Shown here: piece by piece, positions 10,510 to 64,000 of the stretch
How positions within the stretch are numbered: position 1 is the first letter of the stretch
How the letters are laid out: each line of letters begins with the position of its first letter
Assembly (NCBI GenBank): GCA_020137815.1
Contig: CM035355.1
Location: 3,100,001-3,164,000 of the forward strand
Origin: Hormiphora californensis
Taxonomy: Eukaryota; Animalia; Ctenophora
DNA: 64,000 nt
Direction of reading: 5' to 3'
Translations under genes and position numbers: made by a program
Notes under the pieces: generated by a model
What the model was told of the DNA's origin: nothing
Seen by the model: only the letters and a program-made list of their open reading frames with translations
Databases searched by the model: none

Positions 10510-13419
10510 ATGGCGCCCAAAGGATGCGGGCTAGTACAGAAACCCGTTGTCTACATATACGGTACGGGGTGGGGTTCTATAATTGCAGAACTCCTTGTGT
10601 TACAAGGGTTTGAGATAGCTGGAATGTGGAGTTATGATGAGCTAGAGTTGGAGAGGTTGAGGACTAAACTTAATATCGGGTAATTGTCCCTACTCACGAA
10701 ATACCCTGAACTGGGCCGAAACTACACTGTCAACAGTGTATTGTGCGAGAAGGACCAATCATTTTGTATGCCATCTTGTGAGTTGTGTTCTCACTCTGAT
10801 ACCCCTCGCACTTTCCATTTCTAATCAATTGATCCCCGAAGTCCCAACAGCCCTTTCAATATCTACAGATACTGTACAATGGATAAGGATGAGCTGCTAA
10901 GCTACCAAAACACACACCGGAGTAGGTCCAGTGTAGTGTGGATAGCAACACCTCCCTTCCAACTGGCTTACATTGCTAAAGAGATCCTGACTTTATCAAA
11001 CAATATTGTAGTAGAGACACCGGGAGGTAGGTGTCAGGGTGGTGTGGTGGGAGACAGGGGGAGGTAGGTGAAATGGGAAGAGGGAAGAGGTAGGAGAAAG
11101 GGGAGAGGGCCGAGAGGTTGGTAAGGGGGAAGGTGCAGAAGGGAGAAGGAAGAGATGAGGTATAGTTATTTCAACCTCCTTCACTTATGTTATCAGTTAC
11201 ACCACCTCCCCGACAGCGTCCAGTGTTGCAGAAGCTGAGGAGCTGTATAACGGTGCGTCCCAGTTCGCTACGTGGCTGTGTACGTGCCCCTACCAGCTCA
11301 GATACCTACCTGATGTGATTAGAATGAGGGACCTGATCAACGAACAGAGCTGTGGACTTGTCACCAGTGTCGAGGTAGGTTGGGGTGGGGAACAATGGGG
11401 CGGAGGGGGGACAATGAGGTTGATCTTTACTCTTTAGTTGATACTTTCAAATTTCAATTCCCATCGCTTTTCTAAATTCCTCCTCTTGTTCTAGGTGCGA
11501 CTCCACTGTAACAAGACTAAGGTTTGCGGCTCTAAGTACAGTTGGAAGTATGATAAGAGCAGGTGTGGGGGAGCACTAAACATGTTTGGGTGTCACATAA
11601 TTGATATACTCAACTACCTCCTAAATGAAAAGGTATTGATAGTTACTATATCATTCATTTTGCGTGTTCGGTGCGTCCTCTACTACTTTCGAAAAGGTCA
11701 TCCTCCAGACGCAGCAATCACCAACAAACATCATTCAGTGTGTGTTTAGTAAATAAATAACGAGGAAAATGATTACTTGAACCAACATTATTAAACTCCA
11801 ACCCCACCTAAATTATGCACTATATTGTGTACTACTAACACATTGAACCCTGCCCCAGGTTGAATCAGTGTTTGGTTCCCAGGAGTGTTTAATGAAACAG
11901 AATCTGGATGAGATTCACTCAGTAACAGCGGATACTGTGTGTAACTTTGATCTGAAATATCATCAGAGGTCGGCCAAGAAGACGTTCCTGGATGATAGTG
12001 TTGTCGCATGGGTGAGTGTAACTTGTTGTATGGGTGTTACATGTAGCCTGAGTAATACATATTATAAGTGTTATATTAGTAACGACGCCGTTTTTGTGAA
12101 AGCTGGGATCAGTTTGGTTATAGAGGGAGCTCCCGGGAGGGGGGTATTTGGTCGAACATTCAACAATTGTCTGTCTACCTTTTTTCTCATTCTATAAATC
12201 ATAATGGCAGTTAATAACCGCCCCCCCTTCTGTCAGGTGCATATCAACATGTGTTATCCTGACACGATATTTGAGCAGCGTATAACGGTCCTGACCACAG
12301 AGTGTGCACTTGTGTTAGAGAACAGTACTCTCTCAATTACACCTTTCGAGTAAGTAGCACGGAGAGAAAACCCTTTCTATGGGTAGTGATCGTTCAGGAA
12401 TGGCAGATTTACCGATCAAATCGCGATTGGATATCGGGCATATTAAGTTATTAAATCACGATTTAGCTGGCGTTTTTCGTTATCAATTGGTTAGCCACTC
12501 CATAACAGTTCCCACAAGTTAATAGTTCCTAGATATTCCTTACCACACATTTCCCAGGGACCACCCTCAGCACGCGGACCTAGTTGGAACCCTCACCCGC
12601 CACCACCAGCCCCTATTGGAGGGTCTAGAAACGGACCCTGGGCAACCTGCACCTTACATACTGGGAATGAAACATTTCATAGCAAAACTGCCATCATTTA
12701 TCGCTAAACTGCCCTCTCGACTACCCGCACCATCTGATGAGTGAGTTATCAAATCAGTTAGTAAATAAATCAATTAGTAAGGTATCGGAGCCCCATTTTA
12801 TGCCCTGAATGGGAAGTTTTACTGTACCTGATAATTCCTTCACCAATGTGTTCCCAAGGGTCTCTACTAACACCACAGAAAACCCTAAAATCGGGTAAGC
12901 GGTGCAACACCTTCATTTCCGGGTTATTGTGCATGCGCACCATGTGCGTTGGGCGAGAAACTGAAAATCGTAAAAATCTGAGTTTTGGACCCGTAAATTA
13001 TCTACCCCGACCGGAAACATCGTGTTAGTGGGAGTAGAGCATGTCAGATTTGCTAATGAGATAATTACATAATTAGTGGACTAATTATCGACAATTCTTA
13101 AAAATTGGAGTTTGGATCCGGAAAATGACCATACCCGGTAACCCTCAGAGCCTACTAAATAACCCTCCCAGATATACGTGTTAGTTTCAAGTCTCTGTGT
13201 CTATTCCAAATTGTGTGACTCTGTTGTTAATCCTTTCTTCCTCCCAGGAGTGGACCTAAAACTGGACTAGATTCCCTGCAACACATAATGAAGGTGATGA
13301 AGTTAATTAGGGAATCGAGCGAGAAGAAGACTCGGATGTATGTGAAAGAGAGAAAGTACACGGTGAATGACAAGAAAAACAATCACACGAAGAGTGTGCG
13401 ATCATCGAAGAATCCATGA
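10510..13419 (+). CDS. GFO/IDH/MocA-family oxidoreductase (GFOD1/2-like), multi-exon
   Basis: Rossmann VYIYGTGWG, VWIATPP, NIVVETP (EKP position), YQLRYLP and YSWKYDKSRCGGALNMFGCHIIDILNYL. About eight exons with GT-AG joins. Confidence 0.75.
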
Positions 13420-29483: not shown

Positions 29484-40591
<11,108 letters not shown>

Positions 40592-53500: not shown

Positions 53501-54357
53501 AAGGGAAAAAAAGAAAAAACCCCCCCACCCGGGGGGAAGGAAAAAAAATGGGGGAAAAATTAAAACAAAAATTTTTTGGGGAAAAACCGCTTTGCCCCCT
53601 CCCCCCGGACACCCCCCACGATTTTTTGGCCCACTTAATGGATAACAAGGGTGGACCCAAACAAAAGGGAAAGGGAAGAAGAGGGGAAAGGGAAAAGGGG
53701 AGAAAAAAGAGGAGAGGGGAAGAGTGGAAAAGCAAAAAGGGAAAGAAAGAAGGAAAGGAGAGAAGAAGGAAGAAGAAAAAAAGAAAAAGGAGGGGGAAAA
53801 AACAAAGAAAAGGGGAGAAGAAGGGGGGGGAGGAGAGAGGGAATTGTGTCAGGACAGCAGCAATGGCTTGACGTGCTATGAAGTAGTCTAAAGATACTAA
53901 ATCGTTCCAAACTGCTCTGAGAATAAGGGAGACATGGAGAACAATAAGGGCACCAAATCCTGTCTGTTTGTCTGTCTGTCTTTTCGTCTGTCTGTCTGTC
54001 TCTCTGTCTGTATTTTCGTCTGTCTGTCTGTTTAATAGCTGTCTGTCTGTAGTTATATCGTGATTTCATAATATCAGGAGAAAAGGGTGGAGGTCAGGCG
54101 GTTTATTTGAACTGTAGCTATATTCATTATTCACAAGAAACATAAACATAAGCTTGCTGTGTTAGACAAACACACGTGATATAAACCACCACTATAATTA
54201 TAGCCATCCACTGTACATGGTCGTGACCCGTATTAGTAGTAACATTGTGTCACATACAATTTGTGTGAATAAGTTGTGTTCATCACGCCTGAATAGCCCT
54301 ATTTCTACTAGTTTTTCAAATTTCCAAACACATTCATATCTCCTGATCTACTACAAG

Positions 54358-57300
54358 ATGTTGCTGGCAACGCTTTTGACAGTGATGCTCATAGTGGGTG
54401 GGAACTCAGCTGCAGTCAACATATTTAGGACTTCAGTTACAGAGGAACAAATGACTTTGTGTCATACTGGCTACAGGTACACTTACAGTAGGACATCGAT
54501 ATACCGGGCACCTCGATCATATACCGGGCACCTCGATCATATACCGGGCACCCCGATCATATACCGGACACCCCGATCATATACCGGACACCCCGATCAT
54601 ATACCGGACACCTCGATCATATACCGGACACCTCGATCATATACCGGGCACCCCGATCATATACCGGGCACCTCGATCATATACCGGGCACCCCGATCAT
54701 ATACCGAGCACCCCGATTTATTTGTTACTCAACAACGATTTATATACCGGGCACCTCGATCATATACCAGGCACCTCGATCATATACCGGGCACCTCGAT
54801 CATATACCGGGCACCCCGATCATATACCGGGCACCCCGATCATATACCGGGCACCACGATCATATACCGGGCGGTGGGCGGACTCTAGTGCTAACGGACT
54901 CTTTATCTAAATCCAAGGCGGACTCTATATCTAAAAACGGACTCTTTATCTACAGTTAGATTTTGAAAAAAGTTTAGATAAAGAGTCCTCTCTGTGTAGA
55001 CTTTTTAGATAAAGAGTCCACCCTGTGTAGAATTTTTAGATATAGAGTCCTCTAGTACATTTTGGCGCCAAATCCTCCAACCCGGACTCTATGTCTAAAA
55101 TCCCAACCCAACCCAAAACCTAACCCTAACACTAACCCTAACCCTAACCTCGAACCCAAATAACGGCCCTAACACTTCTAAATTAGTATAGGGGTAGAGC
55201 AAACTCTCGTTTCCGGCCTAACGGCCGAAATCTCGAGTTCGCGGCGAAAGGCGGACACTATATCTAATTTAGATTTATGTAGATATAGAGTCCACTTTGT
55301 TTAGACTTTTTAGATAAAGAGTCCGCCCTGTGTAGACTTTTTAGATAAAGAGTCCTCCTAAAGTTTAGACTTATTTGGACTCTTTATCTAAATCTAAATT
55401 TAGATATGGAGTCCTCTTTAGACTTAGAGTGTAGCACTAGAGTCCGCACACCATACCGGGCACCTCGATCATATACCGGGCACCCCGATCATATACCGGG
55501 CAAAACCCTTTCCCCGAGCATCCCGGTAGATCTTCATTCGCCTGTTTATAACCCCCGTCTCTTCATCAGTAGTATGTAAAATAGCCCCGCTGTATCAAGA
55601 TTTTCGGTGTCACCTCTTTATTCCATATATGGGCATGTGATGTCATAATCACGTGTCACTTGACGTCATATGATGTCACGTGATGTCACGTGACGTTGAC
55701 GTCACATCGTGACGTCACGTGACGTCGCAAAATTAATTTTTCATACATTCCATATATGGTCATATTTCATGCGATGTCACATGATATCACATGATGTTTC
55801 GCGATTATGAAGTCATTATGTGACATCACTTGGAAATAACGCTGGCAAGGGATCTCATTGATTTTTTGGACTTAAACGACACAAAAATTGATTGTAATCG
55901 CTGACTTCACTCTAAATTATAAACAGCATCATCTCTCTCTCTCTCCCCCCTCTCTCCCTTTCTCTCCCTCTCTCTCTAGTCTCTCTCTCTCTCTCTCTGC
56001 TTCAAACTGATGACAGGTGAGTGGCCACTAGGAGCGTGTAGTAAACATGCTGAGCTACTGTTACACACTAAAATACATATTTCAGTAGAATAGAGCTCAG
56101 AGCTTCCAGACAGTCCTGCACGTGATGTGTTTCATTCACGTGCATAACGCATTTCTTTGTAGTACTGCTACGGTGCCGCTAGCTTACTCTCATTTCTCAT
56201 TAGTAGAGTCGATAAGAACACTCACCTCCTCCGATTTCAGTAAAACTTCTCACATGCTAAAATATGATAATGGAGGTACAAATACCGCTTATTTTAGGTC
56301 CAAAAAGTTTTTGGTTCGTTAATTATCGCTAATTGAAAAACGCCAAAAATGGGCTAAAATGGCCCTTAAGGTGGATTTGAAATTTTGGAGTTGGAACTCC
56401 AGACTTCGTACAGGTGTCCGCTAGGATGCCAATATGCACCACAGGCGGGCTCAGGCCTAAATTCGTCCGAATTTTTGCGTAAGACCGGATGGCGTAAATC
56501 TTGGTCACGTGACCTCGGCTAACTTCTGAACCGCTCAAGTAAGGGATGTTCATAACCTGCTTAATCGATGCAGAATATGATGAAAATGACACGTTTTGAC
56601 ATCATTTTTCATCCCAGACGCACAGGAAAGACACAAATCGCCTTACAAAATTGACGCCATCTAGTCTCCCGCTCTTTTTTTGCAAAACTCTAACTTCTGA
56701 ACCGTTGAAGTAAGGGAGGTTCATAGCCTGCTTAATCGATGCAGAAAGAAAAATAAATGAGAGGAAATGGCCTTATTTTTCATCTCCGGCGTGCAGGAAA
56801 GGCACAAATAGCAAAAAACTGATTTTTTGCCCAAATCACGTGACCAAAATTCACGCCATCCGGCCTTACGCAAAAATTCGGACGAATTTAGGCCTGAGCC
56901 CGCCTGTGGTGCATATTGGCATCCTAGCGGACACCTGTACGAAGTCTGGAGTTCCAACTCCAAAATTTCAAATCCACCTTAAGGGCCATTTTAGCCCATT
57001 TTTGGCGTTTTTCAATTAGCGATAATTAACGAACCAAAAGTTTTTCGGACCTAAAATAAGCGGTATTTGTACCTCCATTATCATATGTTAGCATGTGAGA
57101 AGTTTCACTGAAATCGGAGGAGGTGAGTGTTCTTATCGACTCTACTACATTGGATAGCGTATTCGTGTGGTTTGCTCTCATTGGGTAGCGCAGCTGTGAC
57201 TGCGTTAGTCAAAATAACGCACTTTTCTAGTTGCACGTGATGTGTTCCATTCACGTTTATAATGCGTTTCTTTGTAGTACTGCTGCGTTGCCGCTAGCTC

Positions 57301-60300
57301 ACTCTCATTGGATATCGTATTCGGTTGGCTTACTTTCATTGGATAACGCAGTCGTCAACGCGTTAGTCAAAATAACGCGTTATATGAAGTCATTATGTGA
57401 CATCACTTGGAAATAACGCTGGCAAGGGATCTCATTGAATTTTTGGTGCTGGCAAGCGCCCAATAAGCATTTTTAGCTGTCCCAAGAAATGTATTTCTGT
57501 GCAAGAGGTAGCGGGTTCGAATCCCGACCGGGCCCGGATGGCTAGTTTAAAGTTTGCTAATAAATCGACCTCTGAAAATTATTATATTATTATGAATAAA
57601 TTTGGCACTAACAAGCGCTCCAGCAGTGTATGGATGTCCCCAGCTGGCAAGGGCCACAGTATAATGTAAAATGGCCCCGCTGTACCACCTAAAAATGGGG
57701 TACACATTTGATAATCCAGTAAAATGTCTTGAAGCTTACATTAATGGGTGTTCTTAGCTGTTCCTAGCCATTCCTAGCTATTCCTTGTTAATTATAGGAA
57801 TCATAAAAGCGTTCCAAGTGTTCCTAGTATATTCTTCGTGTGCTCTATGAGTGTTCCCAGCAGTTCCTTGATCATTCAATCTATTCCTAGTGTTCCTAGT
57901 CTGTTATTCACCGTTATCTGTTGTTTCTCGCTTGTTACAGGCATCACAGGAACACACAGGAACATCATAGGAACACGGTCGAACGGTTAGAAACACCTAG
58001 GAATAAACATGAAATCGAAAGAACACCAAGGAATGAAAGGGTTCTTGAAATAAACACCGAGGAACACCCGGGAACGCTATAAAAGGGGGATGTTTTCCAT
58101 GATCATCATTTCCAACCATGTCTCATTCAAAGTCTTTTCTGAAAGCCATGCGCTTGAATGACAAAAAGCGAAATACCTCTGATTCTGACTCTGACACTGA
58201 TTCTGACCCGAAGGAATTATCCCAATTATCTGATGAAGAGATCGATTCACCAAATGTCGAAAGTGAAACGCCATACTCGAGCCTACTGCAGTGTTTTAGT
58301 TTGAAGCAAGATCTAATTAATGCAGATTTGACTGAGATTGAGCTGTCACCAGAAGAGGAGCTTCTAATAAATGCGATAAAGGATAACGAATCATTGATCG
58401 TTATTCGTGAATTGGTGCAACAAAATTTAGAATTGGTAGAAGATATCACGGAAAAGGTGTTACCGGAAGAGAACGAAGATTGTCCAAATTGTGGGAATAA
58501 AGAGGAACATTAAACACTAATGTAGGAACAGTGACGACTATAAAAGGAACACTTGTATTTTAGTTTATTATTGTCATTTGATTTTTTTCTGTAAAAATGT
58601 ATCCATGCAATTTGTGTGATAGTGAATTTACGACTGTTTATCTTCTTCTTCAACATGAAAAATATGATCACGAAAAATGGGGACCAACTGGTACTGACTC
58701 AGTTCAATCAATCAAAGGATTTGATGACAAAACAGAAAACGTTCCAAATGAGGAATCATCAATTAATTTCAAAAAGGATAATGAAGTAAATAATGATCTT
58801 GAAGATGAGGATGATGATATCGAGGAAGATGAAATTGAGGATAAATCTGATCCATTAAAGGATATTGACTTCAAGGCGTTGTACCGAAAACGAGATCAAC
58901 AAGCTCGGAAATATGAGAGATTATACAAATCAAAGTTGAGTGAAACAAAACAGCATCTTGAGAGAATGCTCTTGTTTGAGAAACAACTAGATGAATTTAG
59001 GACTAAATTTAATGACACGCAGTTCTATGAGTTCTCGGATACAATAATCAACTCTAAAAATATCCGGGACTATTTAGAACTACGAAGATTGATGGATATG
59101 AAAAGCTATGCTTCGATTGTACGTAGTAATAGACTGGTTAAAGCAATAAAAAGCCTATTTATCGGTCTAAAGTATGGAGCTGTTCCTCTAGTTGTTCCTC
59201 AGAGAAAGCGTCTAAGTGCAAAAGGTAGAAAACTGATCAATCTGGTTGATTGCAAAAGCCTAGAAGAAATCAAAAGACTACTTTTAAAGCATTCGAAAGA
59301 TTTTTATAATATTTTTCAAGTTATCGGGAGAACGCTATCCCTTGTTGCAAGTTTAGAATATGAAAATTGAGATGTATGTATTATTCTATTTGTAGCTCTA
59401 AAAAGCGTATTTTCTGACTAAATTTGTATTTTAAGCTGTTTTTAACCGTTCCTGTATGTTCCTGGGTGTTCGTGTATGTTCCTGTGTGTTCCAGTGATGC
59501 CTGGAACAAGCGAGAAACACCAGATAACGGTGAACAACAGACTAGGAACACTAGGAATAGATTGAATGATCAAGGAACTGCTGGGAACACTCATAGAGCA
59601 TACAAAAAAAATAGACTAGGAACACTTGGAACGCTTTTAAGATTCCTATAATTAACAAGGAATAGCTAGGAATGGCTAGGAACAGCTAAAAACACCCATT
59701 AATGCAAGCTTCAAGACATTTTACTGGATTATCAAATGTGTACCCCATTTTTAGGTGGTACAGCGGGGCCATTTTACATTATACTGTGGCCCTTGCCAGC
59801 TGGGAACATCCATACACTGCTGGAGCGCTTGTTAGTGCCAAATTTATCCATAATAATATAATAATTTTCAGAGGTCGATTTATTAGCAAACTTTAAACTA
59901 GCCATCCGGGCCCGGTCGGGATTCGAACCCGCTACCTCTTGCACAGAAATACATTTCTTGGGACAGCTAAAAATGCTTATTGGGCGCTTGCCAGCACCAA
60001 AAATTCAATGAGATCCCTTGCCAGCGTTATTTCCAAGTGATGTCACATAATGACTTCATAATCACGAGACATCATGTGACATCGCATGAAATATGACCAT
60101 ATATGGAATGTATGAAAAATTAATTCTGCGACGTCACGTGACGTCACGATGTGACGTCAACGTCACGTGACATCACGTGACATCATATAACGTCAAGTGA
60201 CACGTGATTATGACATCACATGCCCATATATGGAATAAAGAGGTGACACCGAAAATCTTGATACAGCGGGGCTATTTTACATACTACTTTCATCTAATAT

Positions 60301-62457
60301 ATCTATTTTCCCAATTGTGATCTAACATTGTCTAGAGACACTACGGGACGTTGTCATGGATACGTTAACACCAAGGACTCTACGGTGTACCCTGCAATAC
60401 CAGACAACTGCACCACCATTACGTGGGAGAATGCAACAGAGAGTAACAACTGGGGTAACTGTGTCAACATGACGATTGATGGAGATTACAGGCTAGTAAA
60501 CTACTAATATGACTAAAGATTCTAAAAAGCTTTCATTAAAGCCAAAGTACGCATTCTCCTAATACTATACTCGCTGGGGTATCTTTATCTTTATGTTGGT
60601 GACACAGTCACCCTTACAACTCACGCACGTAGCGCGCCAAAACGAAGCCGGGAAGCCCGCGTAGCGGGCTGAGTTGTAAGAGAGGTGACGGCGCCACCAT
60701 TACCAAATCTTTATGTACCCTTTTATCAAATTTTTGATTACTTGTTTATTGCTTTTGCAGGTATGTGACAAGTAACAGCGTACCTGACTTCTATATGAAT
60801 CCCTATTGCCCACTGGGGCTAAACCTTGGGTACTGCTCTAAAATAGAACGAGAATGTAAGTTTGTGAATAAATGTAGCATGAAACCATGTTGAACTCTCT
60901 CCTAGTTAAAGTAACGATCTCACCCTGCTCTCTCCTATTTAAATTAACGATCTCACCCTGCTCTCTCCTAGTTAAAGTAAAGATCTCACCCTGCTCTCTC
61001 CTAATCAAAGTAACGATCTCACCCTGCTCTCTCCTATTTAAAGTAATGATCTCACCCTGCCCTCTCCCCTATTTCACAGCGGGTACGTGCATGTTCCCCA
61101 ATTTGACGTGTGGAGAAGATAACGGACCCGGTTCAGTGCCTTATGGAGACGTTTGGGTACCTGCTACCGCCCACTACAAAATACCATTGGTACGTGATCT
61201 CGTGTTTTGCAAATGTTACTATACGTGACCAGTTTTGTACTTGAGGGTCTTAGATGTCAACCAGCAGCTAAACGTTGCCCCCTGTATGGCGGCGCCATAC
61301 CCTATTTAATTCTCAATGGCAACGACAGTGCGTTCAGATGGGGTCGCGGCGCCAGACAGCAGATGCCCATTATACAAGGCAGTATAACTACAATGATAGA
61401 TGATCTGACTTGCCTAGGTTGGTAACCCAACAAGGAGTGACAGGCCTGGTGATATGTACGATGCAGAGACAGTGGGTGGAGAGAAGAACATTGCAGCCTC
61501 TGCAGGTGTTGCGATCAATGGAGTAGGAATTCAGGTTAATATGCTATGTTGATGCTGAGTTTCCTAACAAAAATAAAAACAACTAAATTTGTCCGCATCT
61601 CCGAAGGCAGAGTAGAACTACGTCGCTGTTTGTGTATGTAATAATTGTGAAAACTTTCGAGCTAATGTTTTCTTCGCTCGCATATATCACCCTGCTCTCT
61701 CTCTCTCTCCTAGTTAAAGTAACGAGCTCACCCTGCTCTCTCTCTCCTAGTTAAACTAAAGATATCACCCTTCACTCACATACCTTTTTAGGGCCCTAAC
61801 GATGCGGGGGATGTTAGTATTGACGAGGCAGGACTTCAGTTAGCATGTGGGGGACACGTTACCCCTCCTCTAGGCAACATTCCCCCTGGCCCAGACCCTG
61901 GAGCCCTCGGACCTCCCATGTACCATTTCCACAAAGCAGCCGACTGTTTGGAGCCCTTCCGTAATGCATCAATCGGCGCTGCCCACGGAGCCAAACCGCT
62001 GATCCATGGGAAACTTGTTGGTTGGTCTATGGACGGTTTCGGGGTTTATACCTACCAAGATGTGGGGGGAGCTGCCCCTATAGTGGACGAATGTGGCGGT
62101 CACTTTGGACCAATTGATACGGGTGAGGTGGTATATCACTACCACAGTAGAACGTACGTACCATACCACATGGCATGTCAGGGACCTGCCCTGGGGAACT
62201 GTGCGGCCACCCAGCGGGGTACCAGTTACTGTCATCCGGGGTGTGGGGGATATGAGGTGTGCGTTCAACCTGGGACTAATGAGCAGGATCTTAGGGAGTA
62301 TCTGGGGCAGTGGGATCCGGAGTGGATAGATCAGTACACTATTAACCCATACCAGGAACGGGAAGAGAAGGATAACAATGTTAACCCCTACCAGGAACAG
62401 AAGGAGGGCAATGTTTTTGAAAAACTGGTGAAAGAGATCAAGGAGATGTTCCTCTAA
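54358..62457 (+). CDS. Secreted YHYH-domain protein; exons 54358-54476, 60336-60491, 60761-60855, 61080-61189, 61418-61534, 61792-62457
   Basis: Signal peptide MLLATLLTVMLIVGG, then YRYVTSNSVPDF, YKIPL, GVAINGV, CGGH..YHFH, LVGWSMDGFGVY and VDECGGHFG..YHYH..PY. All exon phases are consistent. Confidence 0.85.
54498..55502. repeat. 20-bp minisatellite (catataccgggcacctcgat) interrupted by a MITE
   Basis: About 20 tandem units at 54498-54872 and 55453-55502. Confidence 0.9.
54873..55452. mobile_element. Mutator-like (MULE) MITE
   Basis: TIR ggtgggcggactctagtgcta / tagcactagagtccgcacacc; 9-bp TSD ataccgggc; many subterminal ggactctttatcta repeats in both orientations. Confidence 0.8.
56201..57147. 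mobile_element. Academ-like non-autonomous element nested in the left Polinton TIR
   Basis: ~310-bp TIRs beginning tagtagagtcgataagaac; 3-bp TSD cat; internal duplicated segments at 56519 and 56690. The superfamily call rests only on TAG termini plus the 3-bp TSD. Confidence 0.65.
58077..58088 (+). promoter_or_regulatory. TATA box upstream of mini-Polinton ORF1
   Basis: ctataaaagggg about 40 bp before the ATG at 58118. Confidence 0.55.
58118..58513 (+). CDS. Mini-Polinton ORF1: acidic 131-aa protein with terminal CxxC
   Basis: Intact intronless ORF with a Ser/Asp-rich tract, CPNC near the end and AATAAA overlapping the last codons. Confidence 0.6.
   Translation: MSHSKSFLKAMRLNDKKRNTSDSDSDTDSDPKELSQLSDEEIDSPNVESETPYSSLLQCFSLKQDLINADLTEIELSPEEELLINAIKDNESLIVIRELVQQNLELVEDITEKVLPEENEDCPNCGNKEEH
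58538..58548 (+). promoter_or_regulatory. TATA box upstream of mini-Polinton ORF2
   Basis: ctataaaagga about 58 bp before aaaaATG at 58597; same ctataaaagg core as ORF1. Confidence 0.55.
58597..59370 (+). CDS. Mini-Polinton ORF2: C2H2 zinc finger + acidic tract + coiled coil + basic C-terminal domain (257 aa)
   Basis: YPCNLCDSEFTTVYLLLQHEKYDH is a canonical C2H2 finger. The ORF is intact, intronless and AT-rich. Confidence 0.75.
   Translation: MYPCNLCDSEFTTVYLLLQHEKYDHEKWGPTGTDSVQSIKGFDDKTENVPNEESSINFKKDNEVNNDLEDEDDDIEEDEIEDKSDPLKDIDFKALYRKRDQQARKYERLYKSKLSETKQHLERMLLFEKQLDEFRTKFNDTQFYEFSDTIINSKNIRDYLELRRLMDMKSYASIVRSNRLVKAIKSLFIGLKYGAVPLVVPQRKRLSAKGRKLINLVDCKSLEEIKRLLLKHSKDFYNIFQVIGRTLSLVASLEYEN
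60893..61068. repeat. 39-bp intronic minisatellite
   Basis: ctctctcctagttaaagtaacgatctcaccctg x 4-5; related copies at 61686-61770. Confidence 0.8.
61282..61359. mobile_element. Second (inverted) copy of the 77-bp mini-MITE at 9048
   Basis: Reverse-complement similarity to 9048-9124 over its full length. Confidence 0.65.
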
Positions 62458-62545
62458 GCTAGGAGACCATCAAATGAAAATAAATAAGCGAAGGAGTTTT
62501 TAAAAGTGAAAGAAAGTTCAAAAGATATTTAAGTCTCTTTCTTAA

Positions 62546-63934
62546 GGGTACGCTAACCAAAATTTTTTTTCGAGTGCAGGGAAATCTCTCACCGTAGGGT
62601 TGTAGGCCATGCCAAGGAGACCTCAAATATGCAATTTGAGCTCTCAAGTCGAATTCATATTTTTGCTACAGCTATTTAAAAAATGTCCTGTAAATACGTT
62701 TTTGGCATCTCAAAATTTTTTTTAAAAGATAGGAGCATGAAAATTTGGGGATTTGAAGAGGACATGAAGGGGAATAACCACAAAATTTTTTTTTGTAATC
62801 CGAGCTGATTTCCGGTCCTGAGATGGATTTCTTTTTTTCCACTTTAACGCCCTATTTGGCAAAGTTCCGAAAACATGTGAAAGCTGTAAATTGGTGAAAA
62901 GTTGCGTCTAACGATTATCTAAGTGGCCATAAATTTTGGGCGTGTCCTTATTTGAAATAAGATGTACAGAGTTTTTTTTGTGAAAGCCGTCATTTCAGAA
63001 ATAGATAAATTCCCTGTATCTCAAAAACGGCTGATCGTAGAGACCTGAGACTATGCTTAAACGATTCAGAAGGTCCGATTTTGGGGGGGTCTTCTGAGAG
63101 ACATTTTGCTCCTACTTCAACCGTTTTTGCTGTAATTGCGAAAAACAAATTCTATGGAAAGGGCAAAAGCTAAACTCCAATATCCTGTAATTAGGGAATT
63201 TTGGCTAAGAAAGGACCGAAACTATGGAAAAATGTGTAACAAGCTAATTCCTTCACTATTTGGTCCATATGGGTCCCTATAATCACCAAAAACAAAATCA
63301 CAAAAAATCCACGATGGCGAAGATGGGTTTTTGTTTTTCGCAATTACAGCAAAAACGGTTGAAGTAGGAGCAAAATGTCTCTCAGAAGACCCCCCCAAAA
63401 TCGGACCTTCTGAATCGTTTAAGCATAGTCTCAGGTCTCTACGATCAGCCGTTTTTGAGATACAGGGAATTTATTTATTTCTGAAATGACGGCTTTCACA
63501 AAAAAAACTCTGTACATCTTATTTCAAATAAGGACACGCCCAAAATTTATGGCCACTTAGATAATCGTTAGACGCAACTTTTCACCAATTTACAGCTTTC
63601 ACATGTTTTCGGAACTTTGCCAAATAGGGCGTTAAAGTGGAAAAAAAGAAATCCATCTCAGGACCGGAAATCAGCTCGGATTGCAAAATTTTTTTTTGTG
63701 GTTATTCACCTTCATGTCTTCTTCAAATCCCCAAATTTTCATGCTCCTATCTTTTAAAAAAAATTTTTGAGATGCCAAAAACGTATTTACAGGACATTTT
63801 TTAAATAGCTGTAGCAAAAATATGAATTCGACTTAAGAGCTAAAATTGCATATTTGAGGTCTCCTTGGTATGGCCTACAACCCTACGGTGAGAGATTTCC
63901 CTGCACTCGAAAAAAAATTTTGGTTAGCGTACCC
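62546..63934. mobile_element. Second copy of the TTAA foldback element
   Basis: Same termini, arms and spacer as 30132-31521, flanked by ttaa. Confidence 0.9.
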
Positions 63935-64000
63935 TTAAGTCTCTTTCTAAAGTCTAGTAATCATTAAATTTGTAATTATGGCAATGCAGTAGTTGTTCAT

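Follow-up and report, generated by a model that had tools for sequence, protein, structure and literature searches.

A comb-jelly mini-Maverick carries a conserved gene whose product is predicted to resemble adintovirus GasderminX

According to PMC8097293, Polintons/Mavericks are recognised by an AGTAGT-type end motif, long terminal inverted repeats (TIRs) and a 6-bp target-site duplication, autonomous vertebrate members measure 12.7–24.6 kb, and the gene pm lies between atp and pz. Mobile polintons devoid of polB also exist, as stated in 10.1101/2025.02.07.637071. The adintovirus protein GasderminX has been proposed as a virion core protein (10.1101/341131), and an adenain motif and a pX-like tail are described in PMC8502044. 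Judging from size and position, GasderminX probably corresponds to the Maverick pm product (PM), and a core-protein role is presumed for both. Here we describe a 4.7-kb mini-element located in a 64,000-nucleotide stretch of the ctenophore Hormiphora californensis genome (assembly GCA_020137815.1, contig CM035355.1, positions 3,100,001 to 3,164,000; hereafter the window, whose numbering is used throughout). Its second open reading frame (ORF), ORF2, codes for a protein whose C-terminal domain is very probably homologous to GasderminX/PM.

A first-pass annotation of the window had marked ORF2 as a C2H2 finger fused to a domain resembling a small basic Maverick/adintovirus protein. The frame is genuine and encodes 257 amino acids (aa), with the C-terminal peptide quoted in that annotation at residues 180–231. 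The domain had been placed at residues ~165–257 and was found to be larger, spanning about 141–257. When folded alone with 26 sequences, it was modelled with a predicted local distance difference test score (pLDDT) of 90 and a predicted template modelling (TM) score of 0.82. Foldseek comparison with BFVD gave as top match the GasderminX of Terrapene adintovirus (TM 0.67/0.72, root-mean-square deviation 2.8, 23% identity), aligned in 115 columns over the 109-aa target with a probability of 1.00 and an E-value of 0.074. The next match had a probability of 0.11, and the highest other value among 50 matches was 0.15. GasderminX was again the top match of the full-length ORF2 model, which bears out the proposed likeness. 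The domain is thus predicted to adopt the helical fold common to GasderminX and PM, one prediction being compared with another, and it shares with GasderminX the motif G-x-[VI]-P-L-x3-Q. No Pfam or PDB family was found for it, and searches of solved structures returned no clear match to ORF2.

The sequence pattern put forward in the first-pass annotation matched a single IMG/VR contig, the complete 12.3-kb Polinton L007, where the motif falls in a 113-aa basic gene directly after the ATPase gene and before the ORF in the PZ position. L007 has TIRs, and its ATPase, integrase and protease were identified by Pfam; the genes we take to be its polymerase and capsid genes were assigned by size, order and motifs. 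All core genes of L007 (1–12321) share a strand, the opposite one bearing a PC4-like ORF (11373–11885, Pfam E 0.003). ORF2 fits 13 of the 20 positions of the pattern, against a best of 10 among 5000 shuffles, a comparison made partly circular by the fact that ORF2 was in sight when the pattern was drawn up; among natural proteins, three small basic ones of Maverick type fit 17, 14 and 13 positions. A profile of the ORF2 family gave the L007 protein a score of 14.8 bits, reached by 0 of 2000 shuffles and biased by the selection of this protein through the motif. All three small basic proteins end in Q[TK]GGF followed by a hydrophobic helix, in agreement with the adenain motif and pX-like tail. 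A point missed in the first-pass annotation is that ORF2 has lost this protease-cleavage motif (QxGG-F): in register, QTGGF is replaced by KHSKDF, and an adenain-type motif occurs within the last 60 residues of only 1 of 115 family proteins.

The features of the mini-element (55568–60288, a length that counts a 1.5-kb secondary insert in the left repeat) are collected in the table. Its existence, also claimed in the first-pass annotation, was confirmed by termini that start with AGTAGT and end with ACTACT, by TIRs of ~820 bp that are 95–97% identical and by the 6-bp duplication TTCATC flanking it on both sides, all of which follow the Maverick/Polinton end pattern of (AGT)2 or (AG)3 with long TIRs. 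In one contig of run X5, position 55561 is joined to 60289 with six shared letters; this is an empty-site allele, and the insertion is therefore polymorphic. One run X5 contig also lacks 56191–57147 of the secondary insertion. In run X1, the summed depth was 220–680 over the ORFs against 5–12 on unique stretches, which is not a copy number, and up to 13 contigs carried one variant, indicating many diverged copies. Between the inner TIR ends, ORF1 and ORF2 are the only ORFs of at least 70 aa; neither has an intron, and each is preceded by a TATAAAA box (34 nt before ORF1, 52 nt before ORF2). ORF1 gave no Pfam or PHROG match, and it lies upstream of ORF2 wherever a contig extends far enough (L002, L003 and L004). 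None of the genes for pPolB, integrase, ATPase, protease and capsid that characterise an autonomous Polinton/Maverick was found in the mini-element. Since the ORFs of at least 100 aa of L007 had no tblastn match in the window, the mini-element is a non-autonomous Maverick-type element.

Table. Features of the mini-element and of the ORF2 protein (window coordinates)
Feature	Position	Strand	Basis or remark
Left target-site duplication TTCATC	55562..55567	.	Empty-site joint in run X5
Outer left TIR, begins AGTAGT, many TGACGTCA/CACGTG-type palindromes	55568..55869	+	95% to 59997-60288
Secondary insertion breaking left TIR	55870..57375	.	~70-bp duplication flanks (55800-55869 / 57376-57446)
Foldback within secondary insertion, like a miniature inverted-repeat transposable element (MITE)	56201-57147		
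Inner left TIR	57383..57976	+	97% to 59466-60060
TATAAAA box 5' of ORF1	58078..58084	+	Sequence; putative function
ORF1, 131 aa	58118..58513	+	Acidic, net -21; C-terminal CxxC
TATAAAA box 5' of ORF2	58539..58545	+	Sequence; putative function
ORF2, 257 aa	58597-59370	+	ORF
Single C2H2 zinc finger, ORF2 residues 1-25	58597..58671	+	Pfam, model
Acidic disordered linker, indel-prone, ORF2 residues 28-91	58678..58869	+	Composition, model
Long helix, probable coiled coil, ORF2 residues 92-136	58870..59004	+	Model
Basic helical domain like adintovirus GasderminX / Maverick PM, ORF2 residues 141-257	59017..59370	+	Model, alignment
Right TIR, ~820 bp, end ACTACT	59466..60288	-	Inverted-repeat comparison
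Right target-site duplication TTCATC	60289..60294	.	Sequence

The finger, acidic tract and coiled coil that had been read ahead of the C-terminal domain were largely recovered. The finger ligands are C4-x2-C7-x12-H20-x4-H25, and residues 4–25 conform to the pattern C-x2-C-x3-F-x5-L-x2-H-x3-5-H; Pfam zf-C2H2 families match residues 2–25 weakly (E 0.015–0.047, under the curated cut-offs) and the finger is modelled at a pLDDT of 87–88. Residues 28–91 include 24 D/E (net charge -18), residues 28–84 having a pLDDT below 50, as expected of disorder. Residues 92–136 form one 45-residue helix in the model, for which a coiled coil is probable.

Searches with ORF2 returned 25 close homologues at 48–94% from marine assemblies, all full-length members of which keep the four finger ligands. 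The named ones are gene models of Pleurobrachia bachei (84% and 70%), a third P. bachei model being more distant. A profile of residues 85–257 collected 114 clusters at E ≤ 0.001, and in the resulting 115 sequences G194, P197 and Q202 are conserved at 97%, 100% and 99%. A C2H2 finger is present in 72 of the 114 relatives (in 71 within the first 40 residues), and in 70 of the 94 that reach at least 190 aa. In a domain tree with a midpoint root, from which short domains were dropped (95 of 115 domains retained), the parsimony root state is finger-bearing, and 7 of 10 members of the ORF2 clade have a finger. The fusion had been presented as peculiar to the mini-element; given these counts and this root state, the sequences instead identify it as the family norm, and the layout of finger, linker, helix and domain extends across the family. 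Linkers are between 24 and 580 aa long; among 67 finger-bearing members, 34 have one that is net basic, often with K/R repeats, and 6 a strongly acidic one like that of ORF2. P0138, P0159 and P0162 carry 6, 9 and 11 C2H2 fingers ahead of the same C-terminal domain. In the literature searched, including 10.1101/2025.02.07.637071, PMC11161782, PMC6431247 and 10.1101/2024.01.15.575659, neither this family nor Polintons of ctenophores were found described; the supplements of PMC8502044 may carry an 'Adintoc' name for the family. Through ORF2, the uncharacterised Maverick protein PM/GasderminX is tied to a family without annotation that numbers at least 114 clusters at 50% identity, which offers a handle on the role of this conserved gene and on whether Mavericks form particles.

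The ratio of nonsynonymous to synonymous substitution (dN/dS) for ORF2 residues 85–257 was 0.05, 0.12 and 0.07 against the copies L001, L002 and L003 (dS 0.27–0.47). With these copies, the linker gave 0.56–0.64 and ORF1 0.34–0.45; the finger gave 0.24–1.45 on 27 codons, which is uninformative. The low values over helix and domain reflect purifying selection, so the ORF2 cargo appears functional on this sequence evidence. ORF2 runs into TIR sequence in all three copies, L002 having a TIR on both sides; selection would thus have acted among elements of the mini-layout, unless the elements formed independently of one another with identical junctions. Non-autonomous elements usually let their genes decay. 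Here two genes are kept under purifying selection, which would mark the mini-element as a gene-bearing satellite and imply an active helper in comb jellies.

A further link to Mavericks came from locus L004 (1–2529), where a relative of ORF1 (39%) is followed by a finger-less relative of ORF2 (42%) and then by a convergent adenain-like protease gene (Pfam E 0.009, PDB adenain E 0.025, L007 protease E 2e-8), the ORF2 relative lying between the other two. The three-gene cluster is bridged by a single X5 contig and occurs in runs that hold the mini-element, at low depth, its identity being 97% in those of organism A and near 100% in those of organism B. The ~530 bp on the upstream side of the protease showed no similarity to capsids.

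Several of these results weigh against the link to GasderminX/PM and to Mavericks. Foldseek returned E-values no better than 0.018 and 0.074, with both structures predicted; the profile comparison suggested with the first-pass annotation gave weak support, hhalign profile–profile probabilities being below 4% with a 3-sequence profile; and the family profile scored the two relatives of the L007 protein at 4.1 and 2.1 bits (34 and 140 of 2000 shuffles). The net charge of the ORF2 domain is +11, lower than the +18 to +24 of the small proteins, and ORF2 as a whole is near neutral. PM would be a ~110-aa gene between ATPase and PZ, and ORF2 has 257 aa and lies between ORF1 and a TIR. A Maverick core gene adjoins a family member at L004 only, and no autonomous element bearing a gene of the family was obtained. 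The weak E-values and failed profile–profile tests would suit a chance match between small helical bundles, ORF2 being an unrelated host or mobile-element gene captured between Maverick ends, and the L004-type locus, low-copy and 97–100% alike in two organisms, is what a host locus might look like. Against this stand a TM score of ~0.7 over the full length at 23% identity and the common motif; ORF2 is also intronless, its domain belongs to no Pfam or PDB family, and searches brought up no family of host genes. We regard a chance match as very improbable.

What ORF2 does is a matter of weighing. The account that we prefer, though tentatively and with slightly less than even confidence, is that of an extended, uncleavable relative of the core protein that acts through contacts with helper proteins to favour the mini-genome. 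A helper Maverick would supply polymerase, integrase and capsid and mobilise the mini-element in trans; ORF2, a relative of the presumed core protein GasderminX/PM with added finger, linker and helix, would resist the maturation protease and would give the mini-genome an advantage by contacting core or packaging components of the helper, the ORF2 finger binding protein rather than reading a DNA sequence. The adaptor idea of the first-pass annotation comes close to another explanation, in which ORF2 regulates transcription or chromatin: its finger and basic domain would hold DNA such as the TIR palindromes, its acidic tract would activate, and the mini-element itself, the helper or genes of the host would be under its control. 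The presence of finger, acidic tract and long helix in one protein, its own TATA box, the relatives with 2–11 fingers and the five copies of TGACGTCA in the mini-element against one in the other 59 kb would all fit. The single finger is however flanked by acidic rather than basic sequence, with T/Y/L/Q at positions -1/2/3/6, and over 71 family fingers the base-contact positions 2, 3 and 6 vary while N at +1 (46/71) and Y at +5 (53/71) are kept. ORF2 hence has neither the tandem fingers or basic flank nor the conserved contact residues of a sequence-specific C2H2 transcription factor, and such binding, as first proposed, is doubtful. The L004 relative is moreover finger-less, the strongest selection falls on helix and domain, and the palindromes could instead serve as sites for host bZIP/bHLH factors. 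We consider a regulator unlikely.

Distinctly unlikely, in our judgement, is that the family is a plain PM/GasderminX orthologue that condenses the genome of a divergent marine-invertebrate Maverick clade, the mini-element being a deletion derivative with nothing satellite-specific. The existence of 114 relatives, the basic linkers of half the finger-bearing members, which would suit DNA condensing, and the protease gene adjoining the ORF2 relative in L004 all agree with it, but the linker of ORF2 is the opposite in charge, the protease motif is absent, and selection among mini-layout copies is unexpected for passive cargo. A bolder form of the helper-contact account starts from the presence of ORF1 and ORF2 in the mini-element and of both with a protease in L004: the comb-jelly Maverick system would be split over small TIR-bounded elements that complement or parasitise each other, ORF2 being a satellite-encoded, protease-resistant core-protein mimic that redirects packaging to mini-genomes. 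Such a split system appears improbable; if true, it would be an animal counterpart of phage satellites, achieved through a widespread undescribed protein family.

Other features of the window were also recorded. TGACGTCA, TGATGTCA and CACGTG palindromes cluster densely near both ends of the mini-element (55568–55869, 60035–60288) and are possible sites for host factors, as in adenovirus inverted terminal repeats. Inside the TIR, GGGTTCGAATCCC at 57511–57524, mirrored in the right TIR, resembles an RNA polymerase III B-box/tRNA T-loop; neither ARAGORN nor Rfam found a tRNA there. The mini-element seemingly lies inside an intron-containing host gene (54217–54480, 60298–62457): an exon resembling one for a signal peptide precedes it, and the exon-like frames that follow it finish in an ORF matching YHYH weakly (E 0.005). 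A 1.4-kb MITE-like foldback occurs in two copies that are 96–98% alike (30128–31525, 62541–63939).

Compared with adintovirus GasderminX (PMC8502044 and 10.1101/341131), ORF2 shares the predicted fold along the full 109 aa of that protein, a basic helical domain and the motif G-x-V-P-L-x3-Q-x3-L; it differs by 140 extra residues (finger, acidic linker and long helix), by its missing QxGG-F motif and lower basicity, and by residing in a two-gene element rather than in an ATPase–PZ module. With autonomous Polintons/Mavericks the mini-element has in common (AGT)2 ends, long TIRs, a 6-bp target-site duplication and intronless genes, whereas it is only 4.7 kb long and carries none of their polymerase, integrase, ATPase, protease and capsid genes. 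Non-autonomous Polinton derivatives of the Repbase type are likewise mobile without a polymerase of their own, presumably in trans; the mini-element differs from these in having two genes of its own under purifying selection rather than decay or foreign transposable-element cargo. Satellites of DNA viruses such as transpovirons and phage-inducible chromosomal islands are alike in being small helper-dependent replicons with selected genes of their own, a comparison of how they work only, as the mini-element is integrated in an animal genome, shares no demonstrated gene with them and has a putative helper. The finger fusion carried by this gene-bearing mini-Maverick is ordinary for the ORF2 family.
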